Assembly: GCA_016839585.1 (NCBI GenBank) | Contig: JAEOTZ010000017.1 | Coordinates: forward strand, 1 to 64,000 | From: Promethearchaeota archaeon | GTDB taxonomy: Archaea > Asgardarchaeota > Lokiarchaeia > Sigyniarchaeales > SOKP01 | DNA length: 64,000 nucleotides | Reading direction: 5' to 3' | Shown: positions 32,049 through 56,224 of the stretch, piece by piece | Position numbering within the stretch: the first letter of the stretch is position 1 | Layout: every line of letters begins with the position of its first letter | Translations under genes and position numbers: made by a program | The notes under the pieces: model-generated | Seen by the model: only the letters and a program-made list of their open reading frames with translations | Database searches by the model: none | What the model was told of the DNA's origin: nothing

Positions 32049-32618
32049 ATGCATAGTAGCTCAGAAAAATATATATTTAAGATTGTTGTTGTTGGAGATG
32101 GGCAAGTAGGCAAAACATCTTTAATACAAAAATTTACAGAAGGTAATTTTCAAGAGGAATACATAAAAACTATTGGAGCACAGTTTTCAATATATGAAAT
32201 GGAAATAGATGGAGACTTTTGTGAGCTTTTTTTCTGGGATATTGCGGGTCAAGATGAGTTTCATTTCTTACGACCCTCCTTCTATAGAGATAGCAAAGCA
32301 GCTATTATTGTATATTCGCTTGAAGAAAATGATCTTGGTAAAAATAGTCTCAAGCATATACCAAATTGGCATGATGATATTCTTCAATTTTGCGGTGATA
32401 TTCCAGTTGTTGTATTCGCAAATAAAGTTGATTTAGTTGATAAAGAGAATTTGGTAGATACAAAGATTTTAAAAATTATGAAAAAAAGAAATTTTCTTGA
32501 ATATTATAGAACATCAGCAAAAACAGGAGAGGGAGTATTTCCGGCCTTTCAAACAATAATCAGAGAATTATATAATAAATATAAGGCATTATTCTTAGAA
32601 TTGCAAGGTAAAAGCTGA
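32049..32618 (+). CDS. Rab-like small GTPase
   Basis: GDGQVGKTS, TIG, WDIAGQ, NKVD, TSAK; no C-terminal prenylation Cys. Confidence 0.93.
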   Translation: MHSSSEKYIFKIVVVGDGQVGKTSLIQKFTEGNFQEEYIKTIGAQFSIYEMEIDGDFCELFFWDIAGQDEFHFLRPSFYRDSKAAIIVYSLEENDLGKNSLKHIPNWHDDILQFCGDIPVVVFANKVDLVDKENLVDTKILKIMKKRNFLEYYRTSAKTGEGVFPAFQTIIRELYNKYKALFLELQGKS

Positions 32619-32645
32619 TTTATTATTTTTTCCTTTTAAATCCTC

Positions 32646-32675
32646 TCATAATCATCTTAATTAATCTTATTATCT
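32646..32675 (+). promoter_or_regulatory. Conserved 30-bp upstream element, copy 1
   Basis: TCATAATCATCTTAATTAATCTTATTATCT; 29/30 identical to 36871-36900 and at the same distance from the ATG. Confidence 0.75.
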
Positions 32676-32719
32676 AATATTAAATTAAGTAAAAATATAG
32701 ATAAAAATAGAGATCTGCT

Positions 32720-35335
32720 ATGATATTAAAAATTTTCATTCTTGCGAGAGGAGGAATTCTCTGTTATTCTAAGAATTTTTTTGAGCAGATTGATATAGAT
32801 GAAACCGTTATTAGTGGATTTCTTAAAGCTATTAGTGATTTTGCTAAAGAAATTAAAGGGGGTGAAGTAAAAACCCTTAATTTTAGAAATTTTAAGTTTA
32901 TATATTCTTACTCATTTGAATTTGATTGTATCTTTGTTGTAGTAATTGATAAAGACGATTTTGTACAAGAAACAAGAATTAAACTTGAACTGATGAAAAA
33001 TGAGTTCATAATAAAATATAAACCATTTTTAGAGAATTGGACAGGAAATGTTAGTGTTTTTGAAGATTTTGATGATTTTGTGGATGAGAATGTATTTATT
33101 CCACCTAAGATCTTATTAACTGGAGAAGATGGTGTAGGAAAAACAACAATTATGGATTTAATTCCTGGTGACACTATTTTGGAAATTGATGATAATTTAA
33201 ATGAGGTTATTCAAAAACCTATTAATTTAGATGATTTAAAGGGAATACATCAATGTATTATACAAGAAATTAATATGGAAGAACTGACCTATAATCCGCA
33301 ACTATACAAAAACTTATTAAAATCTGTTGATGTTGTACTTATTGTTACAAATTCAGCCGCAAGTAATTTGGGTCGAACAAAGACTTTAGTCTCAGAATTA
33401 AAACCTGAAGTAAAGAAAGCAGACTTTTATCTTTTAGCAAACTTTCAAGATTTGAAAGATGTTGCATTCGAGCCTGAAAAAATAGAAGAAACGCTTGGAA
33501 TCAAAACTTTTGGCTTTACAGCAATTAAGGAGGAATCTAAAACTAAAATAATTTTCATTATTAAAGAAATACTAAAAATTTCTATTTTAGACAAAATAGA
33601 AAAAAAACATATCTCCACAATAGAAGAAGAACCTATTTTTTATAGTGAAGAAAAAGTTGAATATGAGAAGGTTGATTATGTTGATATTTGGGATCAAATA
33701 GAAAAAGCAAGAATTTTAGAAAGAAAAGGTGAGCATCTTGCAGCTGCAGAAAAATTCTCTTGTGCTGCTACTCAATTTAAAGATATGTGCTCAAGAGTAG
33801 AATTCGAACAAGATATAGAAGAACTTACTGCCATTTCTTTTCTTTGTAGCGCATGGGAAGCTATGGAATTTGCTGAAGAATATGAAGATCCCGAAAGATT
33901 TTCAGATGCAGCAGAGTTATTTAATGAAGCAAGTAAACATTTCACAAATAGTAAATTAAAGTTGTTAGCTTTAGGAAATTCTGCTTTTTGTCAAGCATTA
34001 GGTTTAGGTTGTGAATTTGATAAGGCAAAAAACACATCTACTAAGGCAGAAATTTATCCAAAAATTAAAATGATGTTAAGAAATGCTGCAAATTTATATC
34101 AAAAGGGTGAATTTAAAAGCGAGGCAAATTGGGCTCTTGCAACTTCTACTTATTTTGATGCTACTTGGTATATAATCAGAGCAGATGAAGAATTAAATCT
34201 GGATGAAAAGAAAAAACTTTTAGAAATTGGATCTGGCGTATTAAAATCTGCAGCTGAACTATTTGGTAAAGCAGGTTATAAAGACAGAGAAAAAGAAGTT
34301 TTAGATCGCTTGGATTTAATAGCGAAAGAAGAGAAAATAATAATTTCGGCATTAAGTACAATTAGCGAACCTTCTCTATCTAAAAATACTTTAGATTTAT
34401 TGGTACCATCGATTCCACACCCAACTCCGAAAAAAGAACTGCAAAAAAGGGGTAAAGAAAGAAAATATAAATTAATTTATAGAGATTTACTTAAAGAGTA
34501 CCCAAAAATTCAGAGAAGAGAATGTAGAGTGGGTATTGCTCAGATAGGGGTATCTAGTACCGGAGATTATTTAAAAGAATTCTATAAAGAAAAATCACCT
34601 GGTTTGTTAGGACTCCGTAAGGATAAAATTGATGTGATTAGATCTAAGGTTAAGAAGATAATAGAAAAAGCACATGCCAGCAATGTAAATGTCCTTATCT
34701 TTCCAGAAATGTCCATTGATCTCAATTATGATAAATTTCTTGAGGATATCTCTAATTTTGCTAAATCATATGGAATGTATATTATCCCGGGATCATATCA
34801 CAATAAAGAAACTAGGCAAAATATCAGTATGGTTTTTAGCCCAGATGGAATACTTTGGGAGCAAGAAAAACATATTCCCGCAATTATCCATTTTAAAGGA
34901 AAAAGGTTTAAAGAAGGTATCAACACAGAAACTTTACCAAGGCAAACTATAATATCTAATACCGAATTTGGTAGAATGGCAATAGCTATATGTAGAGATT
35001 TTCTTGATATGGATCTCAGAGTTGAACTTAAAAATTTTGAACCACCAATAGACATAATGTTCAATCCAGCCTTTACTCCCGTTACAGCTGATTTTAAAGC
35101 AGCCCATTTTGATGCCCGGAGGTCAATATATGCTTATTGTTTCTTTGTAAATATCGCTGAATTTGGAGAATCTCTCATTTACACACCAGAAAAAGAACGT
35201 ATCGAAAGAACAATACCATCTAAAGAAGAGGACATAATTTTTAAAGATGTAGATCTCTTTAAATTGCGTTCAGAACGTAAGAAATGGGAAAAAGAACGAA
35301 AAAGTGATAAGAGATTCATACAAAGCACAAGATAA
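32720..35335 (+). CDS. Longin + degenerate small GTPase + TPR/SNAP-like helical region + nitrilase (CN-hydrolase) fusion
   Basis: Longin (IFILARGGILCYS...ISGFL.AI..FA); GEDGVGKTT and ANFQD; Ala-rich helical repeats; nitrilase triad IFPE / QEKH / ICRD. Confidence 0.8.
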   Translation: MILKIFILARGGILCYSKNFFEQIDIDETVISGFLKAISDFAKEIKGGEVKTLNFRNFKFIYSYSFEFDCIFVVVIDKDDFVQETRIKLELMKNEFIIKYKPFLENWTGNVSVFEDFDDFVDENVFIPPKILLTGEDGVGKTTIMDLIPGDTILEIDDNLNEVIQKPINLDDLKGIHQCIIQEINMEELTYNPQLYKNLLKSVDVVLIVTNSAASNLGRTKTLVSELKPEVKKADFYLLANFQDLKDVAFEPEKIEETLGIKTFGFTAIKEESKTKIIFIIKEILKISILDKIEKKHISTIEEEPIFYSEEKVEYEKVDYVDIWDQIEKARILERKGEHLAAAEKFSCAATQFKDMCSRVEFEQDIEELTAISFLCSAWEAMEFAEEYEDPERFSDAAELFNEASKHFTNSKLKLLALGNSAFCQALGLGCEFDKAKNTSTKAEIYPKIKMMLRNAANLYQKGEFKSEANWALATSTYFDATWYIIRADEELNLDEKKKLLEIGSGVLKSAAELFGKAGYKDREKEVLDRLDLIAKEEKIIISALSTISEPSLSKNTLDLLVPSIPHPTPKKELQKRGKERKYKLIYRDLLKEYPKIQRRECRVGIAQIGVSSTGDYLKEFYKEKSPGLLGLRKDKIDVIRSKVKKIIEKAHASNVNVLIFPEMSIDLNYDKFLEDISNFAKSYGMYIIPGSYHNKETRQNISMVFSPDGILWEQEKHIPAIIHFKGKRFKEGINTETLPRQTIISNTEFGRMAIAICRDFLDMDLRVELKNFEPPIDIMFNPAFTPVTADFKAAHFDARRSIYAYCFFVNIAEFGESLIYTPEKERIERTIPSKEEDIIFKDVDLFKLRSERKKWEKERKSDKRFIQSTR

Positions 35336-35402
35336 ATAATAAACTATATAAGTTTAAGAAGATCTCATTAGTTCTTTACATTAAATATAAAAAAGAAAAA
35401 TA

Positions 35403-36470
35403 TTAATTTTTGGGTTTTTTTATTTTATCCTTTACTTCAGCTTCAGTTCCCTCAATTTTAAAAGGTTTTGAGGGTCTTGATTTGTCAATCGGGGCATTAC
35501 AAGCCCAACAAGCATTTTCCAAATTGGATAATGCACGTGCACAGTTTTCACAATATAAAGCATCACAACTAGTGCAGATATACGTATTGAAACCCCCTAC
35601 CTTACTTTTGCAAACTAAACATATTTTCTGTTCCCGATAATAAGTAACTTCTTCTTCAGTTATTTGTTTAGGTCTTTTAGCAATCCTAAATATTGAATCT
35701 TCAATTTTTACTTCTTTTTCAGCAGAGATCTTTTCAATTTTAATAGGTTCTTCTTTCAATCCCAAATAATACAGCCAAAATGTAAAAACCATGCCAATTC
35801 TTACTAAAAAAAGTCCAACGCCAATAATTCCTAAACCCTCAATCAAACTAAATATAGAATTTAAAATGAAGCCAATTGCTAAATAAAAATACTTTTTTCT
35901 TAGTACATCTGTTGATTTAATACTTTTAATCAAATACCCAATTCCAAGAAAAACGAAGGAAATAGCGACGTATGAAAAGCCAATTAGGTAAAAAAGGCTA
36001 TTAGCGAGCAAATCTTCATCAACAAGATCTTCACCTGGCACATCGGGAACGTAAATCGATATAGATCCTAGTGGATCTAAAAAAAGAAGTAATTCCCATA
36101 CAATTGATATGAATACAATAAATCCAACCATATACCATTTTCTTTTAGGAATTAGCAGTTCGCCACCAACATAAATGATAAATATTATTGAAAAAGGTAC
36201 CCAAATGTAACTCATAATAGCTTGTAATTCATATGGTATATTTATTCCATTTACAATATCAAAATTTTTGCCTGTTATTAAAAGAGATAAAGATTCCCAG
36301 AAATTACCCCAATACCAAAGACCATTAAAAAAAATAGCCAAACCCATAAAAAAGAGGAGTTTAACATTAGTTTTTCTACCCTGATATATAAAATATAATC
36401 CAAAAGAGCAGCCAATTATAAGAATGCCCATTATTGAGATAACATTAAGCCAACCTACATCAGAAAGCAT
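35403..36470 (-). CDS. 7TM membrane protein with C-terminal C4C4 RING-like Zn finger (paralog 1)
   Basis: Seven hydrophobic helices, then CLVC-x11-CTSC-x4-CENC-x10-CWAC. Confidence 0.8.
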   Translation of the reverse strand: MLSDVGWLNVISIMGILIIGCSFGLYFIYQGRKTNVKLLFFMGLAIFFNGLWYWGNFWESLSLLITGKNFDIVNGINIPYELQAIMSYIWVPFSIIFIIYVGGELLIPKRKWYMVGFIVFISIVWELLLFLDPLGSISIYVPDVPGEDLVDEDLLANSLFYLIGFSYVAISFVFLGIGYLIKSIKSTDVLRKKYFYLAIGFILNSIFSLIEGLGIIGVGLFLVRIGMVFTFWLYYLGLKEEPIKIEKISAEKEVKIEDSIFRIAKRPKQITEEEVTYYREQKICLVCKSKVGGFNTYICTSCDALYCENCARALSNLENACWACNAPIDKSRPSKPFKIEGTEAEVKDKIKKPKN

Positions 36471-36647
36471 TTTTGGATCCGCCTTTTTAAATATATTTTT
36501 TTTGTAATTTTTATTGTAATTATCTCTTTTTTACAATATAAAAAGCTTACTACATTAATGTTCAATCTCATTAATCTTATTAATTAAATTATTAAAAATC
36601 CATAAAAATAGTTCAATTTTATTTTGTGTTTACTGCTAAGAATATTA

Positions 36648-36809
36648 TTAAGTAATATTATTCTCTTTTGTATTTGATTCATTTGTATCTTTTTTCTTAG
36701 TAAATTTGTAAAAAATAATTTTATCATTGGGAGGTTTTCGTTCAATTATTCCTTTCTTTTTTGTTTTTACTATTTTTGGATATGAATCTCTATTCTGTTT
36801 CTCATGCAT
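36648..36809 (-). CDS. Small Lys-rich hypothetical protein, 53 aa (not in track)
   Basis: Hand-translated MHEKQNRDSYPKIVKTKKKGIIERKPPNDKIIFYKFTKKKDTNESNTKENNIT*. Confidence 0.4.
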   Translation of the reverse strand: MHEKQNRDSYPKIVKTKKKGIIERKPPNDKIIFYKFTKKKDTNESNTKENNIT

Positions 36810-36870
36810 GAGAGCTCTCTTGATATTTTTCTATAGTTTTAAACTTATCAATTATATTTATATATATTTT

Positions 36871-36900
36871 TCATAATCATTTTAATTAATCTTATTATCT
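36871..36900 (+). promoter_or_regulatory. Conserved 30-bp upstream element, copy 2
   Basis: TCATAATCATTTTAATTAATCTTATTATCT upstream of ATG 36945. Confidence 0.75.
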
Positions 36901-36944
36901 TAAATAAAATTAAAAATCAAGTCAAAAAATAATTAGAATCTAAG

Positions 36945-37850
36945 ATGATATCTAGGATATATGTCATAGCAAAAGGAGGGATACTCTGTTATTCAAAAAA
37001 TTATATATGCCCTAGTGAAGTAGAAGATGATTTAATAAGTGGTTTTCTTACAGCAATTAGTGGTTTTGCAAAAGCAGTTAAAGTTGGTGAAATAAAATCA
37101 CTTAACTTTAAAAATTTTAATTTTTTCTATTCCTATTCATCTGAATTCGATTGTATGTTTATTATTGTTACAGATATAGAAGATCTGGAAGATGAGGTAA
37201 GAGAAAAAGTAGAGTTGATGAAAGTTGAATTTATTAATAGATATCATGAATATTTAGAGAATTGGACAGGTAAAACTCAAGTGTTTGAAAGTTTTGATGA
37301 GTTTATTGAAGCACATATATATATTCCCCCAAAAGTTTTATTTGTTGGTGAAACTGGTGTAGGAAAAACAACTATTATGGATTTATTTCCTGAAGAAACT
37401 ATTTTAAATATAGATGATGATATGAATGAAATCATTGAAAAACCAGTTGATATAACAAATTTAGGAAATATAAAGCAATTTATATTAAGGGAGATTGATT
37501 TAGAAGATTTAATAAGTAATTCAAAGCAGTATAAAACTTTATTAAACATTTGCGATATTATATGTATTATAACTAATTCAGCAGCCAGTAATTTAAGAAG
37601 AACAAAAAAATTATTTTTAAAACTTAAGAAAAAAGTCCGGAAAGCAGATTTCTATATAATTGCAAATTTTCAGGATTTAAAAGAAACATCTTTTGAAGCT
37701 AAGGAAATTGAAGAAACTTTTGGTGTAAAAACATATGGATTTTCTGCAATCCAAGAAGATTCGGCTAAAAATATTTTTATCATAATGAATGAAATTCTAA
37801 AAAATTCCATTTATAATAAAATTCAAATGAAGCAAAAGCAAGTTTCTTAA
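36945..37850 (+). CDS. Longin + degenerate small GTPase; paralog of the N-terminus of 32720..35335
   Basis: Longin N-terminus, GETGVGKTT, no DxxG, ANFQD, FSA. Confidence 0.85.
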   Translation: MISRIYVIAKGGILCYSKNYICPSEVEDDLISGFLTAISGFAKAVKVGEIKSLNFKNFNFFYSYSSEFDCMFIIVTDIEDLEDEVREKVELMKVEFINRYHEYLENWTGKTQVFESFDEFIEAHIYIPPKVLFVGETGVGKTTIMDLFPEETILNIDDDMNEIIEKPVDITNLGNIKQFILREIDLEDLISNSKQYKTLLNICDIICIITNSAASNLRRTKKLFLKLKKKVRKADFYIIANFQDLKETSFEAKEIEETFGVKTYGFSAIQEDSAKNIFIIMNEILKNSIYNKIQMKQKQVS

Positions 37851-37893
37851 ATAGAAAATTCAAACTAATTACAATCAAATCAATTTCTTAATT

Positions 37894-38406
37894 ATGACAA
37901 TTGACGAGAATTACGTATTTCCATTATATATTACTAAAGAAGTAATAGAAGGGATTAAAAAGATATGTAAAGAAAACGTTAATGAAGTTTTTGGTTATTT
38001 AGTTGGAGAACGCTACATTTGGGATAAACAGAAATACATTTTATTAAATCATTATCTTTACATAAAGGAGGCTTTCATAGCAAATGAATTTTATTTTCAA
38101 GAATCAGGAGAAAAAGGGATAGTCAACAATATTCAATTTGAATTTTTTAAATATTCGGAGGAATTTGATAAATTAAAATTAGATCCAAATAATGAAAACT
38201 TACTAAGGTTAGGGTGGTGGCATTCCCATCCAAATTTTGGATGCTTTTTAAGTAGTGTTGATTTAGCTACTCAACGCTCAATTTTTAATAAATCATATCA
38301 CGTAGCTTTAGTTGTTGATCCAATTAGAGATGAATATAAATTTTTTACTTTAAATGATCAATTCGAAGATGGATATAAAGAAATTAGTTATGCCATTATC
38401 AAGTAG
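37894..38406 (+). CDS. JAMM/MPN+ metalloprotease (Rpn11/CSN5-like deubiquitinase)
   Basis: NEVFGYLVG...[21 protein letters not shown]...ALVVDP. Confidence 0.93.
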
Positions 38407-38459
38407 ATATTTGATAATTTTTAATTTCGATTCAATTATTAAAATAATCTTGTAAAAAT

Positions 38460-39338
38460 ATGACAGACAACAGTGATAATGAATATAAAATCTTAGGAGA
38501 GGAGGATATAAATGAGGATAAGTATGATCGACAGAAACGAATTGCTGGATGGGACCAAAATAAGATCTCAAATGCTACGGTAATGATAATAGGGGTTGGT
38601 GCAACCGGTAACGAAGTCGCTAAAAATTTAAGCTTGAGCGGAATTGGAAAGTTAATTATTATTGATTATGATATTATTGAAAAATCCAATCTTAATCGAT
38701 GTATTTTGTTTAATATGGAAAATAAAGTAGAAAATAAATATAAAGTAGATATCATTAAAGCAGCGTGTGAAAAACTCAATCCTGAAGTTAAAATTTTAAC
38801 AATAAAGAAAGCTCTTAATGAGATAGATAAAGATTTGTATAAACAAGTGGATGTGATTTGCTCTTGTCTTGATAATGTTGAAGCTAGACTTGAAGCAAAT
38901 AATTATGCATATTATTATCAGGTACCTTTTATTGATTCTGGAATTGATGAATTCTTTGGATCAGTCCAAGCTGTATATTCTGGAGTTACTGATGCTGCTT
39001 GTCTACAATGCGGGATTTCTGGTGCTGATTTAGATTTAATGTGGGTAAAGTTTTCCTGTACAGGAGAAGAAATCGAATCTTCTAATGGAGCTACTATTGG
39101 TAAAATTGCAACTATAATTACTACAACTTCTATTATAGGAGGAATTCAAACTCAACAAGTAATAAAATTTTTATTAGGAATTGATCAATTTAAAGAGCAA
39201 GGAAAGTGGAATCCTCATATTGGAGAACCCTTAATAGGTAAACAATTAAATTATAATGGATTAATAAATAAATTTGAAGTTATTGAAAAGTTAAAGAATC
39301 CAGATTGTTGGACATGTTCTTATAAGGATAATAAATGA
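38460..39338 (+). CDS. Ubiquitin-activating enzyme E1 (ThiF/UBA family)
   Basis: KYDRQ, GVGATGNE, DYDIIEKSNLNR, CLDNVEAR, Zn pairs CLQC/CWTC, putative catalytic FSCTG. Confidence 0.92.
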   Translation: MTDNSDNEYKILGEEDINEDKYDRQKRIAGWDQNKISNATVMIIGVGATGNEVAKNLSLSGIGKLIIIDYDIIEKSNLNRCILFNMENKVENKYKVDIIKAACEKLNPEVKILTIKKALNEIDKDLYKQVDVICSCLDNVEARLEANNYAYYYQVPFIDSGIDEFFGSVQAVYSGVTDAACLQCGISGADLDLMWVKFSCTGEEIESSNGATIGKIATIITTTSIIGGIQTQQVIKFLLGIDQFKEQGKWNPHIGEPLIGKQLNYNGLINKFEVIEKLKNPDCWTCSYKDNK

Positions 39339-39447
39339 AGATTAAATCCATTTCAAAATAAAAAATGATTATTATGAAAGATATAATATAAATATAAAGA
39401 AAGAAAATATCAATATGTAACTTAATGAGATTTTTAATTTTAAAAAG

Positions 39448-40005
39448 ATGCCAGAACTTCCTTTAGAAATTTGGAAAAATAGGATTGAAAATGAAATTAA
39501 AAGTTTAAAAAGCTTAAACGTTATCGATATGAATTCAATAGTTCAAAGTGATAATAGTGTTAAGTTTTTAATCAATTTACAAGGCTTAGGTTTTATTATG
39601 GGTACTTTTAAGGAAGGAATTGATATTGTTCCTCAGAAAGATCATCAAATTCATTTGGAACTAAATAGAGCTTTTCCATATCCTGGAGGCATTAGATTTT
39701 CTTGGCAATCAAATATATTTCATCCCAATATTCATCCTGCTAAAGCCCCCTTGCGTTACGAATCTGGAACTGGCTATATTTGTTTAAACATTCTAAAAAA
39801 ATGGTCAAGACTTACAGATTTAGAGACTACCGTCAAAGCCTTGCAAAAATTAGTGGAGAATCCTAATCCAGATGATCCATTAAAATATGATATTTGTTTA
39901 GAAGCAGCAAATTTTTTTAAGCAAAATACTATGGAAGACCTCAAGAAAGAATTCAAAATTGAAGAAGAAGAGGAAGAAAAGGATGATATAGTCATCATAG
40001 ATTAG
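39448..40005 (+). CDS. Ubiquitin-conjugating enzyme E2
   Basis: FPYP, IFHPNI, GYICLNILKKWS, ENPNPDDPL...AA; acidic tail. Confidence 0.92.
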   Translation: MPELPLEIWKNRIENEIKSLKSLNVIDMNSIVQSDNSVKFLINLQGLGFIMGTFKEGIDIVPQKDHQIHLELNRAFPYPGGIRFSWQSNIFHPNIHPAKAPLRYESGTGYICLNILKKWSRLTDLETTVKALQKLVENPNPDDPLKYDICLEAANFFKQNTMEDLKKEFKIEEEEEEKDDIVIID

Positions 40006-40079
40006 AAAAGTTAAATATCATTCTTAATCCTAACTTATTAACTTATTCTTAATAATTGGATCTCCAATTAAAAAATAAT

Positions 40080-40346
40080 TTATTGTTTATAATAACCCCC
40101 AATTACTCTCGCCCATAAAGCTAGCTTGTCATTTTCCTTTAATCCAAATTTATGCACAGAATCCTCGATGGTTATTGTTGAAGGTAACTCCTTTCCATTT
40201 AATACTAAAGTATATGCGCGTTCCTCGGCACTAATAATGCCCATATGCTTTACAATTATGTCTATAATCCTTTCAATTGTATGATGCTCCTTAACATCAA
40301 GTTTAATAACTTTACCTGTTCGTGAATCCTCAATAGTTATTCTCAT
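40080..40346 (-). CDS. Ubiquitin-like protein precursor
   Basis: Beta-grasp pattern MRITI...TGKVIKLDV...TIE...LVLNGKEL...GLKEND.L.L..RVIGG, plus YYKQ extension. Confidence 0.9.
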   Translation of the reverse strand: MRITIEDSRTGKVIKLDVKEHHTIERIIDIIVKHMGIISAEERAYTLVLNGKELPSTITIEDSVHKFGLKENDKLALWARVIGGYYKQ

Positions 40347-40489
40347 ATAAATCTCTCTCTTTTTTTTAAATTATGTAAATATTTTAATGATTAATTTAAT
40401 TTATTTTAAAATTTGTATTATATATTTAAATATTTTATTTCTTTTCATGTAATCTTAATTTCACTTATTTATAATAACTTTTTGAACCT

Positions 40490-41593
40490 CTATTCTTCTC
40501 TGAGTGTTTTCCTTGATCCTTCTGATATTGTGATATCGATATCATCTTCTTCTATTTTAAAAGGTTTAATGGGTTTTGAATCGTCAATTGGATTATTACA
40601 AGACCAACACATGTTTTCTAATTGAGTTAGAATTTGAGCGCAATTATCGCAATAAAATGATTTACACTTAGGACAAATAAAAACATCAATGAATCCCTTT
40701 AATTTTTTTTTACAAACTAAACAGATTGTTTGTTTTCGATATAACTCAATCTCTTTTATGGATATATCAGAGGGTCTAGAATAAGATAACACCTCGGATA
40801 ATGAAGTTGTTAGGATATCCCTCTCAATTTCATCATCATGAATATCTTCTTCTGGCTGGGTTGTAACTTCTTCTTTTTTTACTCCCAAAACAAAAAAAAG
40901 TCCACTAGCGACCATTCCATATCTAACAATAATTAAAATGATTGTTGGCAGGAAAAATAAAATATCCACAGTTCCAAATCCTAATAAAAGAATGAAACAG
41001 ATAGTTAAATTCGCGAATTTTTCTCTTAAGAGACCTGTTGATTTAACAGATCCATAAAAAAATCTAACAACATAGAATAGTGTTGCTGTTGCAAAAAAGA
41101 TAATAAGTAAAATAGAAGCAGGAGAACCCATAATTAAAACATTATCAATTAAATTTTCTCCTGAATTTGAAGGCATCTTATAATCTACAGTACCAAATGG
41201 GTCTAATAAAAGAAATAAATCAAAGATTATCGCTAAAATAATATAAATAAATAATATTGAATTTTTAAATTCTTTTTTAACACCTGGTATCAAAAATTCA
41301 ATACCAAGATATATCCCAAATGAGAGAGTTGGAGCAAACCATATGAATGTTAAAATACCATGAATTCCAGAGGCATTATTCAAATTTTTGCCAGTAAAGA
41401 GGATTGTGAAAAAATCTAAAACTATACCAGTGAAAAACATACTTATGAATATGATTAGTAATCCAAAATACAATAAAATATCAGATTTTGATTTTTTATA
41501 TCTATACAGACTAAAGGAACCCCAAAGAAAACCAGTGATATACCAAATAATCGCAGTTATTCCATTAAATAGTCCAATAGGAGTTAGAGTTAT
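40490..41593 (-). CDS. 7TM-C4C4 RING-like protein (paralog 2); probable ATA start at 41593
   Basis: Frame is open 40 codons upstream of the track start (41473) and encodes TM1 homologous to paralog 3; CLVC-x12-CPKC-x4-CDNC-x10-CWSC. Confidence 0.78.
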   Translation of the reverse strand: MTLTPIGLFNGITAIIWYITGFLWGSFSLYRYKKSKSDILLYFGLLIIFISMFFTGIVLDFFTILFTGKNLNNASGIHGILTFIWFAPTLSFGIYLGIEFLIPGVKKEFKNSILFIYIILAIIFDLFLLLDPFGTVDYKMPSNSGENLIDNVLIMGSPASILLIIFFATATLFYVVRFFYGSVKSTGLLREKFANLTICFILLLGFGTVDILFFLPTIILIIVRYGMVASGLFFVLGVKKEEVTTQPEEDIHDDEIERDILTTSLSEVLSYSRPSDISIKEIELYRKQTICLVCKKKLKGFIDVFICPKCKSFYCDNCAQILTQLENMCWSCNNPIDDSKPIKPFKIEEDDIDITISEGSRKTLREE

Positions 41594-41791
41594 ATGCTAC
41601 ACCTTTTATAGTATATAGATTTCAATATATTTAAGCTTGATATTTAATAACAAAATATAAATTTGTAAAAGATTACATAATAAATTTTGCTCAATTTCCT
41701 TAAAAATTTTTTCACTTTAAGGCAAGGCTAAATGTAATATTACTTTTTTTTAGCATCTTAAAAAAAGCTTTTAATTATTTTTAATTATATT

Positions 41792-42841
41792 TCAAGATAT
41801 ATCATTATTTTGCTTAACAGGTTTTGATTCATCAATTTGCTCCTCACATATCCAACACTTATTACTCATTTCTATCATCTTTTCCGTGCATTTTTCACAA
41901 TATAATGCTTCACATTGAGGACATAAGAAAATTTTAATGAAGCCCTGAATTTCTCTTTCACAGATTAGACATTTTGTTTGTTCTCGAAATGCTAAGATTT
42001 GTTCTTGTGATATCTCTTTAGATTTAGTCTCAGATAAAATATCTATAAGAGAAGGTTCTTCAGATCTAAATTTTTTAATGGAAGGCAATTTCATGCCTTT
42101 TACAGATTCTTCTTTTAAGCTAAAATAAAAGATAAATCCCCCAATAATCATAAGAACTCTTATTATAATTATTGATGTACCTTTAGGTAAATTAAAGAAA
42201 TCTAAAGGGAAAATAACTACGTCTAAAGAACCAGAACCAAAAAATACTATGAAAGTGATTAATAATAATATGAGTTTCTTTCTTAATATTCCTGAGGATT
42301 TAATACCACTATATAAAAATGAAAGACTAAATACTATAATCCCCGGAAATAAAGAAATTCCGAGCATATAAAATGGAGGAGTCCAAAAAACTAAGATATT
42401 ATCAATTAAGTCTTGACCGGGTTCTGAGGGGCTTTTATAAATAATCGAACTTGAATGAGTTAAAAATAACAGAATTTCGTATATTATACTTATTATCGAA
42501 AAATAAATTAATATTAAATACTTCAACCATACTTTAAAGTTCATAGCAATAAGTTCATTAAATATATAGGTACCAATAATTATTAAAGGACCAAACCAGA
42601 AAAATGTAAGAATACCATGTATATTTGTATCTAAGTTGCTCTCTGTAAAAAGAACTAATAAAGAATCTAAAACCAAACCTGAATATAATAAGCTTATAAA
42701 TAATATAGCCAAACCCATAGAAAATAAAACATTTGATTTTGATTTCCTTGCCTTAATTAAACTATATGTCCCCCATATTAAACCAAGGGTAAACCATATA
42801 ATAATGGTTAAAGCACTTATTACTCCAATAGGAGAAGGCAT
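41792..42841 (-). CDS. 7TM-C4C4 RING-like protein (paralog 3)
   Basis: Seven TM helices; CLIC-x12-CPQC-x4-CEKC-x10-CWIC. Confidence 0.8.
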   Translation of the reverse strand: MPSPIGVISALTIIIWFTLGLIWGTYSLIKARKSKSNVLFSMGLAILFISLLYSGLVLDSLLVLFTESNLDTNIHGILTFFWFGPLIIIGTYIFNELIAMNFKVWLKYLILIYFSIISIIYEILLFLTHSSSIIYKSPSEPGQDLIDNILVFWTPPFYMLGISLFPGIIVFSLSFLYSGIKSSGILRKKLILLLITFIVFFGSGSLDVVIFPLDFFNLPKGTSIIIIRVLMIIGGFIFYFSLKEESVKGMKLPSIKKFRSEEPSLIDILSETKSKEISQEQILAFREQTKCLICEREIQGFIKIFLCPQCEALYCEKCTEKMIEMSNKCWICEEQIDESKPVKQNNDIS

Positions 42842-42896
42842 TTGTAAAAAATATGATTTAATTCTAAATTCTTTTACCTTAAATCTGAATACAAAA

Positions 42897-43472
42897 TTAA
42901 TATATTTTGAAAATTATATCATTTAAATCTCTTTTAGGTACATGTATGGTACCTTCTTCATCCTTCCAATAGTTAAAGGAGTCTTTATAAGGTTCAATGA
43001 TAGCGACCTCATCTGGATATCCTAAGCTTATAACATGCTTTATATCATAATAGTCAGGAATCTCAAATAATTCTCGAATCTTTTTTGCATTAATATTTCC
43101 CATCCAACAACAACCTATGCCAAATTGTACTGCACCAAGTAAAATATTTTCAACTGCTGCTCCAACATCAAAATCAACATAAGTTCTTTTTATTTCAGTA
43201 TTTACGAGAACAATTATATAAGCTGTAGGTTCTCTTCCCTTTTCCGGAGTTCTTTCATCTTTTGGAAGAAGTGCTGCCCAATTTACTAATGGAAATAATT
43301 TTTGGCGAATATCCTCTTTTTGAATAATAATAAATTCAAGAGCTTGCCGATTAGTTGCCATTGGAGCAACACGAGCAAAATCTATCAATTTTTTTAATAT
43401 ATCTAAAGGGATCGGATCTTGCTTAAATCTTCTTATTGTTCTTCTTTTAAATATAATTTCTTCTAATTCCAT
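42897..43472 (-). CDS. Nitroreductase family protein
   Basis: RRTIRRF...AP.A.NRQ, DVGAAVENI.L.A...GIGCCW, LGYP. Confidence 0.92.
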   Translation of the reverse strand: MELEEIIFKRRTIRRFKQDPIPLDILKKLIDFARVAPMATNRQALEFIIIQKEDIRQKLFPLVNWAALLPKDERTPEKGREPTAYIIVLVNTEIKRTYVDFDVGAAVENILLGAVQFGIGCCWMGNINAKKIRELFEIPDYYDIKHVISLGYPDEVAIIEPYKDSFNYWKDEEGTIHVPKRDLNDIIFKIY

Positions 43473-43492: not shown

Positions 43493-43825
43493 TTATTTTT
43501 TAGAATTAATTAATGCTTCTGCTATTTTATGAAAACTTAATTCTACATTTTTTCCAGTTAAAGCAGAAGTTTCTATATAATCGAGGTTAAGTTCTTTTGC
43601 AATTTTGATTACTTCTTTTTCCCCAAGTAGTCTACTTTCCGATAGATCTACCTTGTTTCCTAAAATAAAGCCTATTATCTTAGTATTGGATATTATATAT
43701 TTTTTTATGTCCTCATACCATTTTGGTATACTTTCAAAGGATTTACGATTTGTTAAATCAAATATTAAAATAACTGCTTCTGTTCCTTTATAAAAATGTT
43801 TTCTCATTGTTTCGAACTTGGATTG
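43493..43825 (-). pseudogene. 5'-truncated Rab-like GTPase (G4/G5 half only)
   Basis: Homology begins at QSKFETMRKHFY, the Q of WDIAGQ; GNKVD and ETSA present; P-loop absent; in-frame TGA just upstream. Confidence 0.8.
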
Positions 43826-46789: not shown

Positions 46790-47008
46790 CGTCAGTTCAG
46801 TAAATTTATAACTTAAATAAATATTAGCACTATATATGAATAATTTATATAAATTATAATAATTTAAACATTTAATCAATTTAAATAAGCATATAAAAAA
46901 TATGAATGTGGTATTTAACATTATAGGAACTAATTCTTTATTAATTTTATAATAAATCAACAATCTTAGTTTAGTTTCACGAAGTATAACTTAGAAGTAA
47001 TCAAATAT

Positions 47009-47039
47009 TTAAATCAATAAGGAACGATTTTTTACAATT
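47009..47039 (+). repeat. 31-bp direct repeat, left copy
   Basis: TTAAATCAATAAGGAACGATTTTTTACAATT, identical to 55356-55386. Confidence 0.88.
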
Positions 47040-47140
47040 TTATACAAAAAATGAGAAGTAAGTTTTTATCCAAATACAATTCAGTCTCGCCGTCCTTAAA
47101 GACTAAATAGAAAATTTAAAAAAATTAAAAAAAAAAATAA

Positions 47141-47233
47141 TTAAATAGATTCATAATAAAGTGCTGCCATGCCTATTCCTGCTAAAAGTCCTGCTCCAAT
47201 AAATAATATTGCTGACCACTCTGAAGTAAAAAG
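47141..47233 (-). pseudogene. 3' relic of a paralog of the LRR membrane protein
   Basis: Translates LFTSEWSAILFIGAGLLAGIGMAALYYESI*, versus LFTAEWSAILFIGAGILAAVGMVALYYELS* in 48716..49666. Confidence 0.85.
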
Positions 47234-47282
47234 TCTGAAGTAAAAATAAAAATAAATAAAAAAAAAGAATTTTAAATTAGAT

Positions 47283-48443
47283 TTATTTTGGTCTTCTTCT
47301 TCTTAATATGAAGATTGCTAAGCCAATCACCGCTCCCCCACCAATAACCGAAGATGTGATAATAATTAACTCTAGAGGAAATGCGTCTCCACCTGTCGGT
47401 CCCTCTTTGTAACCAAAATTCACCAGTAACATATCGGAATATGTCACGTAAGTATCTGAAAACCCCCCAAGGTAGAGATTATCAGAGGAATCCACTGCTC
47501 CACAATAACATATTTCACGGTTATCACCACCCCACGTACGATTCCAAAGTTGTATCCCAGAATTATCATATTTCACCAAAACCATATCATCACCTCCAGC
47601 TCCAAAACTACCTGTCTCTCCTGTAAGGTAAATATTATCTGTAGAATCAATTGCAATTCCATAACTACTGTCAGATAGAGCACCACCCCACGTGCGATTC
47701 CATAGTTGCACTCCAGAACTATCGTACTTCACCAGAATTATATCCTCCTCACCTGCGCCAAAGCTGAAGGTTTCTCCCACAATGAAAATATTATTTGACG
47801 AGTCCAGTGCAATTCCAAAGCCACTGTCAGATAGGGCACCACCCCACGTGCGATTCCATAGTTGCACTCCAGAACTATCATACTTCACCAGAATTATATC
47901 CTCCTCACCTGCACCAAAGTTATTTGAAACTCCTACAAGATAAATATTATCTAATGAGTCTACTTCTACTCCCCAACCGGTATCCACATTAAGAATAGCA
48001 CTCCCTCCCCACGTACGATTCCAGAGTTGTATCCCAGAACTATCATATTTCACCAAAACCATATCAACACCTCCAGCTCCAAAACTCCCTGTCTCTCCTG
48101 TAAGATACACATTGTCTAATGAATCTACCGTCACTCCATAACTCTTGTCGTAACTACTTCCCCCCCAGGTACGATTCCAAAGTAGTGTCCCAGAATTATC
48201 ATATTTCAGCACAGCAATAGCTGAACTTCCTTGACCAAAACTATATGAATACCCCACAAAATAAATATTATCTGAAGAATCCACTGCTACACCATTGCCA
48301 TTTTCGGGGTCGTTTCCACCCCATTTACGATACCAGTTAACTCCAAAAGAATTATTTGTCGATAAAACACTAGATATTTGTAATATAAAGCTAAAGTACA
48401 TAACTAATATAACCATTGTTAAGTAAGATCTTTTATTTTTCAT
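47283..48443 (-). CDS. Secreted SBBP-type beta-propeller protein with C-terminal TM anchor
   Basis: Signal peptide, repeats of WNRTWGG...G.GVAVDS.DNIY..G...LVKYD, TM followed by RRRRPK. Confidence 0.88.
   Translation of the reverse strand: MKNKRSYLTMVILVMYFSFILQISSVLSTNNSFGVNWYRKWGGNDPENGNGVAVDSSDNIYFVGYSYSFGQGSSAIAVLKYDNSGTLLWNRTWGGSSYDKSYGVTVDSLDNVYLTGETGSFGAGGVDMVLVKYDSSGIQLWNRTWGGSAILNVDTGWGVEVDSLDNIYLVGVSNNFGAGEEDIILVKYDSSGVQLWNRTWGGALSDSGFGIALDSSNNIFIVGETFSFGAGEEDIILVKYDSSGVQLWNRTWGGALSDSSYGIAIDSTDNIYLTGETGSFGAGGDDMVLVKYDNSGIQLWNRTWGGDNREICYCGAVDSSDNLYLGGFSDTYVTYSDMLLVNFGYKEGPTGGDAFPLELIIITSSVIGGGAVIGLAIFILRRRRPK
47667..47919. repeat. Near-identical 97-bp intragenic repeat, 156-bp period
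   Basis: 47667-47763 versus 47823-47919, 3 mismatches. Confidence 0.8.
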
Positions 48444-48715
48444 TTATCACTTTCAACTTCTTTTTATATTTTTTTCTCATTTTCACTTACTCTTTTCTTG
48501 TAGATTATAATTAAATGATGAGAGATAGTACCCTTTATAATTGAGCTTCCGATAGTTCCATAGAACTTTCAATATCTTGTGATAGTTTCTTAGAAAAAGT
48601 ATAAATAGATACGAGAATGGTATAAGCATTCTATTAAATAATTAGTTATCTTCTTAGCCAAAATCTAGTTTAAATTTTTTAAAAGTAAGAGAAAAAAAAA
48701 ATAATTTAAAAAGAA

Positions 48716-49666
48716 TTAAGATAATTCATAATAAAGTGCTACCATACCCACAGCTGCTAAAATCCCTGCTCCAATAAATAATATTGCCGACCATTCTGCA
48801 GTAAAAAGCACTTCCCAGAAATCAAATTTTACTGGATCTGGATTGTAATTTGTCACTGCCAAAATAATTATCAAAGTTATAAAGCTTGCAATTCCAAAAG
48901 TTATCCCTGCCCATACTGCTAGAGCTAGTAAAATTTTCTTTCCCACTTCATTAATTTCATGGTAGGTCTGACGTCGAATGATCTTCTTTAAGCGCTTTAA
49001 TTCTTGTTTTGGGAACCATTGTTTTGGTCCAAAATGGATTTTCTTATAAGTTTCTTTCGAATAAATGTGGAAATTCTCAATAGGATTCTTTGCTATGTTA
49101 ATATGTGTCGCTGTATTAGGCAAATCTGTTATGTTGAACTCTTTTAATTGATTATTATCAAGGATTACTTTTTTCAATTTTTGAAAATTTCTAATATTTT
49201 CAATTTTTTGGACCTTATTATCACTTAGTTTTAGTATTCTTAAATTTGGAAAATATTCAATTCCCTTCATAGTTGTTATTTGATTGTGAGAAAGATCCAG
49301 CTTTCTTACACGCCAGAGATGATCAAGCCCTTGAATATCAGTAATACTGTTTATGTGTTTACCACATAATTTTAAGGATTTTGATCCCACACGATGTTGT
49401 ATTCCTTCAATTATAATATACTTTGGTTCCAAATTTTGTGCTGAAGATGGATTGGGGGTTGTAAATGTATTAGGTAGCTCTGGTTTGATATCTGTTGATT
49501 CTGTAATTCTTAGGTATATAGAAATAATTGCAGTACCGATTATCGATAGTACCATAAGTGTGAGCATCACTATAGGATTTAGAGTTAATAGCCAAACCAA
49601 TAAAAAAAGAACTAGACATTCTACATACCATATCCTTTTTGACCATGGATCAAGATTTTTGTCCAT
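48716..49666 (-). CDS. Leucine-rich repeat membrane protein (2 TM + LRR + 2 TM)
   Basis: LDLSHNQITTMKGI, LKLSDNKVQKIENI, VILDNNQL repeats between hydrophobic ends. Confidence 0.85.
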   Translation of the reverse strand: MDKNLDPWSKRIWYVECLVLFLLVWLLTLNPIVMLTLMVLSIIGTAIISIYLRITESTDIKPELPNTFTTPNPSSAQNLEPKYIIIEGIQHRVGSKSLKLCGKHINSITDIQGLDHLWRVRKLDLSHNQITTMKGIEYFPNLRILKLSDNKVQKIENIRNFQKLKKVILDNNQLKEFNITDLPNTATHINIAKNPIENFHIYSKETYKKIHFGPKQWFPKQELKRLKKIIRRQTYHEINEVGKKILLALAVWAGITFGIASFITLIIILAVTNYNPDPVKFDFWEVLFTAEWSAILFIGAGILAAVGMVALYYELS

Positions 49667-52600: not shown

Positions 52601-53158
52601 TTTTATGTTTCCAGTACTTCCAGAAAACAAAATATGTACTACTACTTCAAGTTCCTCATCTCCATTTACGTCGCCCAGAACAATAGGATTATCTACAACA
52701 CCGCCAAATTTTGTTGTCCATTCAGTATTTCCAGTCAGACTATTCAAAGAATAAACATGTTGATTCGTACTTCCTATTAATACTTCCAAATATCCATCAT
52801 CATCAACATCGCCTATTGCAGGAGATGAGTGTATACTATCCCAACCATCTCCCGTTTTATGATCCCACATCAGGCTTCCAGATTCACCACTTAGGGCATA
52901 TATAGTACTATTATGACTTCCGAAGAACACTTCAAGCTTCCCATCGTGATCTACATCAAATAGTGCAGGGTTACAATATACTTGATCATCAGCTTGAAAA
53001 CTCCATAATAACGAGGCTGTTGCTGAAGTATTCAATTCGCTTTCCATAGTATTAAAGTGGTTTTCCATTTTCGTATCTTGAATAACTGTTGTTGCTGCAA
53101 AAATAGTTCCTAAAATCAGTACTATAATAACAATTTTTGGGTTTATGATTTTTTTCAT
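49667..53158 (-). CDS. Surface protein: two 8-repeat FG-GAP/PQQ-like propellers, three Ig-like repeats, TM anchor
   Basis: 16 SSPA.GD.DGDG.LEVV.G repeats in two sets of 8, each followed by WQGLAG.DF.R; three ~90-aa PSDF..GY...SWTATD repeats; TM + KKLRRREK; likely start 53158 (track start 53167). Confidence 0.9.
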   Translation of the reverse strand: MKKIINPKIVIIVLILGTIFAATTVIQDTKMENHFNTMESELNTSATASLLWSFQADDQVYCNPALFDVDHDGKLEVFFGSHNSTIYALSGESGSLMWDHKTGDGWDSIHSSPAIGDVDDDGYLEVLIGSTNQHVYSLNSLTGNTEWTTKFGGVVDNPIVLGDVNGDEELEVVVHILFSGSTGNIKVLHGENGSVLWEYLGGAAYSPSLGDVDGDGKLEVVAGTYVFNGEDGTPVWSRNLNCFSSPAIGDIDGDGKLEVVFGTSNSRVYALNGEDGTTAWWRATEASIVWSSPALGDVDGDGKLEVVVGSTESGIGNTDNYVYVFNGEDGSVEWKISTGNQVWSSPAIGDVDGDGKLEVVIGSDDRKVYAINGKDGSISWSYQTGGLVRSSPSLGDLDGDGTLEVVIGCYDYKVYAIKSTPSGEKIVWQGLAGTDFYRMKSFPLVSELWNYPTGDDITSSSALGDIDEDGKLEVIIGSHDDKVYALNSEDGTELWNYATGSSISCSPALGDIDGDGKLEVVVGSDDNYLYALNGENGNLIWQFDTQSDVDSSPALGDVDGDGKLEVIFGNTYDGRIFALNGENGGVLWSHKTNYIIISSPALGDVDGDGKLEVVIGSGDHYLYALNGESGSLRWKYNTGDDIYSSPAIGDVDGDGKFEVVVGSYNGKIYAINGKDGTEIWNYTTASRIMSSPAIADIDGDRRFEVVVGSYDNKIYAINGEDGTETWNFQTGDQVYSSPAIGDIDGDGKFEVIVGSYDDNIYAINGEDGTKAWNYQLGGNIISSPALGDVDGDGKLEIIVGSDDNKIYALNPTTSGEEVLWQGLAGKDFLRPKFTDEISDTLDPIIIDAPSDFNIEFGYTGINISWTATDLHSHIYTIELQGSGIVAGPDSWSNNTPINYTIPDGLDVGVYIYTINFTDSYGQFATDTVIMTIDDTIGPTITDTPSDFNIEFGYTGISISWTATDPHPNTYLIELQGFGIVAGPDSWLSNTPINYTIPDGLNVGEYIYTVNFTDNYGNFATHTVTMTIEDTIDPVITDAPSDFTVDYGYSGVNISWTATDPHPNTYTIELQGSGIVAGPASWSSGVAIVYIIPEGLSSGEYIFTINFTDAYGNSIADTIAITVKEVKTTKQPNLLPIIIGTSIAGIIAVISIPLIVKKLRRREK

Positions 53159-53264
53159 ATTTTTCACTTCCTTTGTTTTATAAATTATTTTTTTTAGATT
53201 TTGACAATTTTATATAATTGGAAAAAAAAATTTGATTGTTATATTTAAAGAAAAAAGAGTATTT

Positions 53265-53363
53265 TCCTAATGTACGATGCCATTCGTATGTATATGTTAT
53301 CCTTATCCCCTCTTTACCTTTTTTTAGTTTTCGTATTTATTTTTCCCTTCTCCTAAGTTTTTT
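53265..53363 (-). pseudogene. Intergenic gene relics (surface-protein tail and SBBP head)
   Basis: 53337-53363 encodes KKLRRREK*, identical to the FG-GAP protein end; 53265-53300 encodes ITYTYEWHRTLG, similar to ISHEYEWHRTWG of the neighbouring SBBP gene. Confidence 0.65.
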
Positions 53364-53398
53364 ATTAGAATATAATATCTTTCAAATTTTATTGGGAT

Positions 53399-55282: not shown

Positions 55283-55355
55283 ATTTTTCACTTGTTTTGT
55301 TTTCAAAATTGATTTTTATTAGATTTTGACAATTAGAGATTAATTCTCCTAATTA

Positions 55356-56218: not shown

Positions 56219-56224
56219 ATAAAA

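Follow-up and report, generated by a model that had tools for sequence, protein, structure and literature searches.

Which protein could act as the ubiquitin ligase at a locus that encodes ubiquitin, its activating enzyme (E1), its conjugating enzyme (E2) and a maturing protease, and has no gene for a soluble RING protein? The question is raised by a contig of a Promethearchaeota archaeon (Sigyniarchaeales; SOKP01; assembly GCA_016839585.1, contig JAEOTZ010000017.1), of which the stretch of 64,000 nt at positions 1-64,000, hereafter the window, was analysed. Together with these genes it carries a gene for a longin/Arf-like GTPase and genes for three seven-transmembrane (7TM) proteins, A, B and C, each of which ends in a zinc finger. 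To our knowledge, the archaeal ubiquitin systems described so far consist of one E1, one E2 and a small soluble RING, and both the explosion of ubiquitin ligases (E3s) and the way they became coupled to membranes are ascribed to eukaryotes. We propose, at a probability of roughly 0.6, that the locus is a self-contained accessory ubiquitylation cassette in which the finger is a RING-type E3 module, hung from the membrane in proteins A-C. In its enzymatic core the cassette is of a kind known from archaea, with E1, E2, ubiquitin and JAMM protease (PMC5654768; PMC9192718; 10.1101/2023.07.25.550441), and the new features are the membrane-embedded modular E3 candidate, the longin-GTPase at the head of the operon, an insertion and a tail in the E2, a nitrilase fusion and neighbours free of genes of the ESCRT machinery for endosomal sorting.

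The gene content given in a preliminary description of the locus was borne out by Pfam searches and by the sequences of the open reading frames (ORFs). The genes for the longin-GTPase, JAMM protease, E1 and E2 form the co-oriented run at 36945-40005 that had been reported, the ubiquitin gene on the opposite strand converges on them, and the catalytic families score above their Pfam cut-offs. The three paralogous 7TM proteins with eight-cysteine fingers do flank the enzymes, the genes for B and C lying upstream of the ubiquitin gene and on its strand, and the AlphaFold2 (AF2) model of protein A has seven transmembrane (TM) helices and a finger. The cluster also proved to be without a soluble RING gene, a hidden Markov model (HMM) of the finger having found no soluble copy in the window.

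The eight zinc ligands of the finger (C284, C287, C299, C302, C/H307, C310, C321 and C324) are conserved in alignments of 38 and 31 sequences, and their spacing, C-x2-C-x11/12-C-x1/2-C-x4-C/H-x2-C-x10-C-W-x-C, is compatible with a cross-brace; some members have His as the fifth ligand and hence the pattern C4HC3. In the AF2 model the finger is arranged as beta-beta-alpha, with strands at residues 296-298 and 305-307 and a helix at 308-317. The best profile match among solved proteins was the RNF4 RING (5.8e-5), and the TRIM37 RING and the C4C4 RING of TFIIH p44 matched at about 7e-4.

The preliminary description had called for a model of finger, E2 and ubiquitin together; in the model made here, of finger and E2, the finger is docked at the surface of the E2 that RING domains bind. 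The model of E2 residues 1-170 with finger residues 262-340 scored 0.66, while the best of three controls scored 0.00; the mark used is reached by 58 of 80 solved complexes and by 2 of 110 mismatched pairs, a benchmark that holds only approximately here, since the alignments were our own. Agreement between the runs extends to at least 83% of contacts, with a predicted local distance difference test (pLDDT) score of at least 79 for the partners. The E2 contributes helix 1 (2-19), loop 4 (Y78-P79) and loop 7 (121), which is the canonical mode of RING-E2 contact, and the finger contributes its first zinc loop (286-289) and central helix (309-318). The N-terminal helix of the E2, its P77-Y78-P79 and the interface residues of the finger, including V286, are nearly invariant, and W322 is conserved as well. 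In the reconstituted cascade of Caldiarchaeum, the PY of E2 loop 4 and residues I30 and W58 of the small RING protein srfp are required (PMC5654768), and P77-Y78-P79 of the E2 and V286/W322 of the finger are their counterparts here.

The finger is always C-terminal, and its scaffolds are varied. Besides the 7TM domain they include proteins with 8-9 TM helices (about 400-414 aa), MFS-like proteins with 12 TM helices (489 aa), tetratricopeptide repeat (TPR) proteins of 505-632 aa and a leucine-rich repeat (LRR) protein of 526 aa, and solo forms of about 100 aa occur in some relatives, e.g., at loci L029 and L046, so that the finger is not limited to membrane proteins. A search of 1.84 billion representatives at E<=1e-10 gave 680 clusters of the family, and single genomes have from one to at least 16 matches. 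A constant small domain on many domains for localisation or recognition is the architecture of E3 families, which argues for the finger as an E3 module, and its presence on other membrane scaffolds and on TPR and LRR scaffolds suggests that a single E1/E2 pair serves a diverse set of E3s. On the in silico evidence, the fingers encoded at the locus are the likely E3 modules, and they sit on integral membrane proteins.

We mapped 34 related E2 loci with profiles, many of them from close relatives, and 35 loci were counted for finger adjacency. The order longin-GTPase, JAMM protease of the JAB family, E1, E2 and convergent ubiquitin gene was found at every locus that reaches that far (34 loci, four genera). 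A finger protein is encoded at 25 of the 35 loci, usually directly downstream of the ubiquitin gene and co-oriented with it, and three of the five finger genes of this 3.45-Mb genome belong to the cassette, within 4 kb of its only E2 gene. Two unrelated TM scaffolds carry the finger beside ubiquitin in different genera. Of 68 other genomes in the family to which the window belongs, 32 have an E2 ortholog (at least 57% identity), and none was found elsewhere among 300 Asgard genomes. The finger is present in 42 of these 68 genomes and elsewhere gave three weak matches among the 232 other Asgard genomes searched. Strong finger matches were obtained in 32 of 33 E2-positive genomes, this one counted, versus 4 of 36 E2-negative ones, and the 33rd E2-positive genome had weaker matches; the genomes are related and not independent, hence no P value is given. 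As the pattern is patchy within three genera, several joint gains or losses are required.

In two genomes of the same genus that are 100% complete and free of the E2, the orthologs of the Ras-like and nitroreductase genes adjoin each other (77 bp apart in G276:C16 and about 100 bp in G204:C26) and the outer flanks are the same. The block 32720-42841 is therefore gained or lost as one unit, and the cassette consists of the 871-aa longin/Arf-like-helical-nitrilase fusion, 7TM-finger proteins A-C, longin-GTPase, JAB protease, E1, E2 and ubiquitin. The Rab-like GTPase, which had been counted as a member of the system, is a flank, its ortholog persisting where the cassette is missing. The cassette occupies the same chromosomal site across a genus and at one locus of a second genus (L016). 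Neither repeats nor an integrase were found at its ends, terminal direct repeats bounding the block were not found either, and tRNA genes are absent from 28-61 kb.

The enzymes themselves are well preserved. The JAMM motif HSHPx7SxxD is intact in the JAB protein, whose likely roles, judged from its sequence, are processing of the ubiquitin precursor and deconjugation. The E1 has two CxxC pairs and partial NCBIfam matches to Ube1 and SAMP E1, and NCBIfam gave no match for E2, ubiquitin, JAMM or 7TM-finger proteins. Ubiquitin has an 84-residue core ending in GG and followed by YYKQ, and 27 orthologs end in GG plus 0-9 variable residues; its match to Pfam Rad60-SLD is sub-threshold. By a genome-wide HMM search, both ubiquitin and E2 are single in this genome. 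The HPN motif and catalytic Cys112 of the E2 are invariant in an alignment of relatives, an insertion of 9-10 residues precedes the catalytic Cys in the profile comparison with E2s of the PDB, and other Asgard E2s resemble this type only at E about 1e-7. Its C-terminus (39950-40005) is a conserved acidic stretch, an aliphatic run and then two acids, with the consensus EEDDDIIIIDD. A near-identical tail of this type is present on two longin-GTPase paralogs of other genomes (L028:1279-2235 and L029:14004-14951), and the shared acidic-aliphatic tail may be a docking motif similar to a SUMO-interacting motif.

From what is known of these families, the JAMM protease would trim pro-ubiquitin to its GG end, the compact E1 would activate ubiquitin and the single E2 would carry it as a thioester. 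The C4C4 finger, sometimes C4HC3, may then recruit the charged E2 (E2~Ub) via the E2's helix 1, loop 4 and loop 7, and in proteins A-C the finger would hang in the cytoplasm from the 7TM domain and so bring E2~Ub to the membrane. The 7TM proteins may themselves be the targets, or else TM-only paralogs of theirs or membrane proteins in their vicinity. The longin/Arf-like protein would belong to the core and probably act on the cascade as a nucleotide-dependent regulator or adaptor, or possibly be its main substrate. Since the 7TM module is sensor-like, a ligase that responds to a cue can be proposed, and we conjecture that the 7TM domain might regulate the ligase, whose activity may then respond to a membrane or external cue.

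The longin/Arf-like gene lies directly upstream of the JAB gene in all 34 related loci reaching that far, and this fixed position implies a core function. The AF2 model of the 301-aa protein has a pLDDT of 82 and a predicted template modelling score of 0.81. Its N-terminal part follows the order beta-beta-alpha-beta-beta-beta-alpha-alpha of the longin fold, which was assigned by topology only, and its C-terminal part matches Arf/Arl GTPases (Foldseek E 6e-9, template modelling score 0.6-0.7 by target and up to 0.71), with Pfam Arf at 17.2 bits remaining below its cut-off of 22.3. The P-loop G1 motif GxxGVGKT, NFQD in place of NKxD at G4 and SA at G5 are conserved across 27 relatives, and DxxG and the switch II Gln are absent from all 27 sequences aligned. 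As DxxG is lost while the P-loop, NFQD and SA are conserved, the protein probably binds nucleotide but does not switch like a canonical small GTPase. Across the loci it is either free-standing, sometimes in 2-4 tandem copies, or fused to helical and nitrilase parts. Of the link to small GTPases drawn in the preliminary description, the part that stands is the longin/Arf-like GTPase as the invariant first gene of the operon, and the Rab-like part does not, that gene being a flank.

The second longin-GTPase fusion that had been reported is present as the 871-aa protein, and the report of it was incomplete, as the protein also has a helical region and a nitrilase domain with an intact triad. Residues 1-297 are 56% identical to the 301-aa protein and comprise a longin part and a degenerate Arf-like GTPase; the C-terminal domain belongs to the nitrilase superfamily, and its FPE / EKH / AICRD triad motifs are conserved among paralogs. 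A nitrilase domain with an intact E-K-C triad is also carried by two proteins of about 1280 aa elsewhere in this genome (G000 C47:81833-85690 and C3:7667-11503), and in another genus two giant nitrilase proteins are encoded divergently beside the ubiquitin operon (L014, L019 and L025). The 18-nt motif ATTAATCTTATTAWYTWA occurs at 32660-32677, 36570-36587 and 36885-36902, and it is found upstream of both longin-GTPase genes at a distance of exactly 60 nt from their starts, an equal spacing that may mark a shared promoter element; the third copy is in the divergent intergenic region. Three copies are not beyond chance, the mean in shuffled sequences being 1.1 and 10 of 100 shuffles reaching three.

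In the AF2 model of protein A, built from a 38-sequence alignment, the loop that joins helices 4 and 5 has a beta-hairpin, and the TM part is followed by a disordered linker (244-263), a conserved juxtamembrane helix (272-281) and the C-terminal finger. The loops after TM1 and TM5 are basic, and by the positive-inside rule the finger is predicted to be cytoplasmic and the N-terminus to be outside. Gene B has no ATG, GTG or TTG at the homologous start; its frame runs to 41593, and an ORF starting from the TTG at 41473 would be without TM1. At the start of gene B (41560-41600, minus strand), a GGTG box resembling a Shine-Dalgarno sequence is followed by an in-frame stop, one codon and then ATA or ATT. 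This arrangement of GGTG, stop, NNN and ATA/ATT is common to two sister genomes (L001 and L002), and the frame encoding TM1 is conserved, which suggests that gene B initiates at a near-cognate Ile codon, probably the ATA 7 nt after GGTG.

Pfam gave no match on the TM region. The nearest clusters in the ESM Atlas are a TM-only form (236 aa, 587 members) and a 413-aa form with TIR_2. The fusion of the 7TM domain with TIR_2 was confirmed in three genomes (39-48 bits, cut-off 28), and at two of the loci L050-L052 a multi-TM finger protein of the second type and a longin-like gene are encoded within 5 kb. This genome has eight TM-only paralogs of the 7TM domain. A 234-aa paralog of this kind at 59600-60304 (minus strand) is a conserved outer neighbour of the cassette and is present also where the cassette is missing (L054). 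The nearest Atlas neighbours outside the family are HisKA_7TM/7TMR-DISM sensor kinases and GGDEF/EAL receptors (template modelling score 0.50-0.59). An hhalign comparison with HisKA_7TM was co-linear over the whole domain at 81% (E 1e-5, 206 columns), a rerun gave 63.5% and reversed controls gave 1-1.6%. The curated HisKA_7TM HMM (PF16927) had no match in this genome or 11 other genomes of the family, and the HMM of our TM domain had no match to true HisKA_7TM proteins even at E 10. In its behaviour the domain is thus akin to the seven-helix input modules of prokaryotes, with cytoplasmic outputs that can be exchanged (none, finger or TIR), and this lends some support to a sensor reading.

A reading as G protein-coupled receptors (GPCRs) was considered and is not favoured. 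The Foldseek list was flat, with E values of 4e-4 and worse and template modelling scores of 0.36-0.46, and in the VIA list, with a top Z of 14.1 (root-mean-square deviation 4.0, 228 residues aligned), rank 50 still had a Z of 11.0. The VIA top 50 includes rhodopsins and PAQR proteins, and helical bundles reach such Z by arrangement alone. As both lists are flat across GPCR classes, rhodopsins and PAQRs, the likeness to GPCRs is that of a generic bundle.

The preliminary description had regarded the E3s as membrane receptors acting in response to a signal. The location of an E3 at the membrane is supported in silico, and the receptor and signal parts are only hinted at by the TIR tails and the weak HisKA_7TM likeness. 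A wider form of the proposal, which we consider doubtful, is a prokaryotic receptor-ligase signalling system, in which HisKA_7TM-like, MFS-like, TPR and LRR sensors would have the RING-type finger as output, in the slot that TIR takes in paralogs, and a single E1/E2 pair would turn a stimulus into ubiquitylation, with the longin/Arf-like protein as nucleotide gate.

What the cassette is for could be answered otherwise. An unlikely reading, which is nonetheless a live alternative for its purpose, is a network of conflict or immune type, in which sensor scaffolds (7TM, TPR and LRR) would bear exchangeable effector tails (RING-like finger, TIR and nitrilase) and infection or membrane damage would trigger ubiquitylation, in place of housekeeping signals or quality control; it is compatible with the finger being an E3 and differs in the biological role. 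Bacterial operons with E1, E2 and JAB genes are known antiviral systems, and the distribution here is patchy and accessory, with the E2 in fewer than half of the other family genomes and clean cassette-less sites in the same genus. The same 7TM module bears TIR_2 in other proteins, the finger is joined to TPR and LRR repeats and varies widely in copy number among genomes, and the nitrilase domain of the 871-aa protein matches nitrilase effectors of DRT defence systems (PADLOC, E 1e-14). However, PADLOC matched only the generic JAB, the ThiF part of E1 and the nitrilase, with no match at the level of a system and none for E2, ubiquitin, longin-GTPase or 7TM-finger proteins. The flanks are ordinary genes (HSP20, DUF998, Ras and nitroreductase) and not a defence island, and the chromosomal site is constant across the genus and in L016, with ends free of repeats and integrase. 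A scaffold shared by the TPR-finger proteins and a 1281-aa TPR-nitrilase protein was rejected, as BLASTP found no similarity between them.

Several findings weigh against the finger as an E3, and some of them would favour a zinc module without catalytic role, of the PHD, C1/DC1 or B-box type, whose ligands would be ubiquitin, lipid head groups or partner proteins, with the 7TM proteins as substrates, receptors or anchors and the E2 acting without an E3, as at the loci that have none, a reading that we consider quite unlikely. No Pfam RING model reaches its gathering score on the finger, the best being zf-C3HC4_3 with 23.7 versus 27 bits; the commonest sub-threshold Pfam match is C1_2/DC1 (30 of 31 members), PHD and B-box models match too, as does the DZR model below its threshold, and the second-best solved match is the KMT2D PHD finger. 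The fifth-ligand His of some members makes C4HC3, which is the PHD pattern. Ten of the 35 loci have no finger gene nearby, and only four of these ten are at a contig edge, the other six not. Four genomes have finger genes and no detected E2. Since many RING-E2 complexes have been solved, the passing score of the complex model speaks for likeness to a RING-E2 pair and not for binding of this pair.

Against a non-catalytic module stand, in turn, the docking of the finger, in the complex model, at the RING site of the E2, with 0.00 in all controls, the near invariance of the N-terminal helix and PYP of the E2 and of the finger interface, and the strict co-occurrence with the E2; the TPR and LRR fusions fit the logic of E3 adaptors. 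C4HC3 is also the RING-CH pattern of membrane E3s. The idea that the 7TM-finger and GTPase genes merely lie by historical accident beside a standard Asgard ubiquitin operon, with no functional link, is already disfavoured and very improbable: many of the 34 loci are from close relatives, Ras-type GTPases are abundant (56 ORFs in this genome) and the Rab-like gene turned out to be a mere flank, but the whole block is gained and lost as one unit, two unrelated TM scaffolds bring the same finger beside ubiquitin in different genera, three of the five finger genes in 3.45 Mb lie close to the only E2 gene, and finger and E2 co-occur across genomes.

With the finger taken as an E3 module, the cassette can be compared with known systems. 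The operon of Caldiarchaeum subterraneum encodes E1, E2, the small RING protein srfp and ubiquitin with an adjacent Rpn11-like JAMM (Hennell James et al. 2017, PMC5654768). It shares with the present cassette the organisation as an operon, a pro-ubiquitin with a short peptide after GG, a maturing JAMM, a compact ThiF-type E1 and a UBC-fold E2 with the loop-4 PY at a RING-type finger, a contact that here is a model only. The E3 of Caldiarchaeum is a small soluble RING, whereas the finger here forms the C-terminal end of multi-pass membrane proteins, or, elsewhere in these genomes, of TPR or LRR proteins; a longin/Arf-like GTPase comes first in the operon, the E2 has its insertion and acidic-aliphatic tail, and the block includes a nitrilase fusion. 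Asgard ubiquitin-ESCRT clusters with a soluble RING E3 likewise encode E1, E2, RING-type E3 and pro-ubiquitin together, and a functional cascade was shown for a Helarchaeal set (Hatano et al. 2022, PMC9192718; UEV-Vps23 preprint 10.1101/2023.07.25.550441). In contrast, this cassette neither contains nor adjoins an ESCRT gene, its E3 candidates are embedded in the membrane and the likeness of the E2s is only about 1e-7. In the literature searched, multi-TM RING-like proteins were not found described for any Lokiarchaeal ubiquitin operon.

The eukaryotic MARCH/RING-CH, Hrd1 and Doa10 ligases also have a cytoplasmic RING-type finger on a polytopic protein that recruits a soluble E2 (review PMC4021871), and RING-CH shares the C4HC3 variant with some members here. 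However, here it is the C-terminus that carries the finger, the ligands have the C4-x4-C5 spacing known from C4C4 RINGs like that of TFIIH p44, and no sequence relationship of the TM domain to eukaryotic membrane RING E3s was found. The restriction of the family to a single Asgard lineage makes convergence the best reading of the likeness. The HisKA_7TM (PF16927) and 7TMR-DISM modules of bacterial and archaeal sensors are likewise N-terminal seven-helix modules with variable cytoplasmic output, but the output here is a RING-like finger, TIR or nothing and not a kinase or cyclase. Asgard fusions of longin or roadblock with GTPases also join a longin fold to an Arf/Rag-like G domain (Liu et al. 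preprint 10.1101/2020.10.19.343400), and the Atlas neighbours of our longin-GTPase are Asgard Arf/Roc/Ras clusters of about 308 aa. Unlike those fusions, our protein has its longin part N-terminally, has lost DxxG and has NFQD as G4; its gene is fixed at the head of a JAMM-E1-E2 operon, and one genus also has it in fusion with a nitrilase.

Table. Features of the ubiquitin cassette, its boundary markers and related 7TM-TIR_2 proteins
Feature	Position	Strand	Basis and remarks
Ras/Rab-like small GTPase	32049..32618	+	Pfam Ras 144 bits; left boundary marker, outside the cassette
871-aa longin/Arf-like-helical-nitrilase fusion	32720..35335	+	CN_hydrolase 31.4 bits, cut-off 23.2; inside the presence/absence block
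7TM-finger A, 355 aa	35403..36470	-	AF2, mean pLDDT 84.5; family alignment; E2 complex model
Longin/Arf-like GTPase, 301 aa; heads the operon	36945..37850	+	AF2; Foldseek; alignment
JAB/JAMM/MPN metalloprotease	37894..38406	+	Pfam JAB 38.3 bits, cut-off 22.5
Compact ThiF/MoeB-type E1, 292 aa	38460..39338	+	Pfam ThiF 161 bits
UBC-fold E2, 185 aa	39448..40005	+	Pfam UQ_con 46.5 bits, cut-off 27
Pro-ubiquitin, 88 aa	40080..40346	-	Sequence; ends RVIGG-YYKQ
7TM-finger B, about 367 aa	40490..41593	-	Homology; no canonical start codon at the homologous N-terminus
7TM-finger C, 349 aa	41792..42841	-	Paralog of A and B
Nitroreductase	42897..43472	-	Pfam 100 bits; right boundary marker, outside the cassette
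7TM-TIR_2 proteins, 410-425 aa	L050:8274-9548, L051:361-1602, L052:3429-4658		Other genomes of the family

The window is AT-rich, with a G+C content of about 30%, and the outer neighbours of the cassette are the ordinary genes named above. The 104-aa Ras-domain ORF at 43493-43807 (minus strand) matches only residues 245-354 of a 355-aa fusion of an N-terminal domain with Ras in a sister genome; as the 5' two-thirds of this fusion have no match up to 45000, the ORF is a truncated remnant. About 11 kb of higher GC (0.32-0.38), at about 47000-57900, encode large beta-propeller/FG-GAP, SBBP-repeat and LRR proteins and an HTH protein, and lie between two Ras-fusion genes that are adjacent in the sister genome L002, which marks this segment as a strain-specific insertion. 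The sequencing runs listed as covering 35400-42900 are marine-sediment DNA runs, with no RNA run among them.

The preliminary description saw in this locus a possible precursor of the eukaryotic down-regulation of receptors, a view that does not agree with the near confinement of the finger and of this type of E2 to one Asgard family. As the cassette is, moreover, dispensable in that family, it looks like a lineage-specific, parallel invention and not an ancestor of the eukaryotic machinery. This is a warning that eukaryote-like arrangements in Asgard archaea are not always ancestral. If the finger is an E3, this lineage would have arrived independently at polytopic membrane E3s, at a set of E3s that is diversified over membrane, TPR and LRR scaffolds and reaches 16 or more copies in some genomes, and at a fixed link of the ubiquitin cascade to a longin/Arf-like GTPase. 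The set of one E1, one E2, ubiquitin and a finger of about 80 residues would then offer a compact model that can be reconstituted for the study of E3 diversification and membrane-linked ubiquitylation. Should the wider receptor-ligase reading be true as well, the family would possess a membrane signalling or immune-like network, and archaea would have independently invented sensor-coupled E3 logic and an expansion of E3s that are otherwise thought to be eukaryotic.

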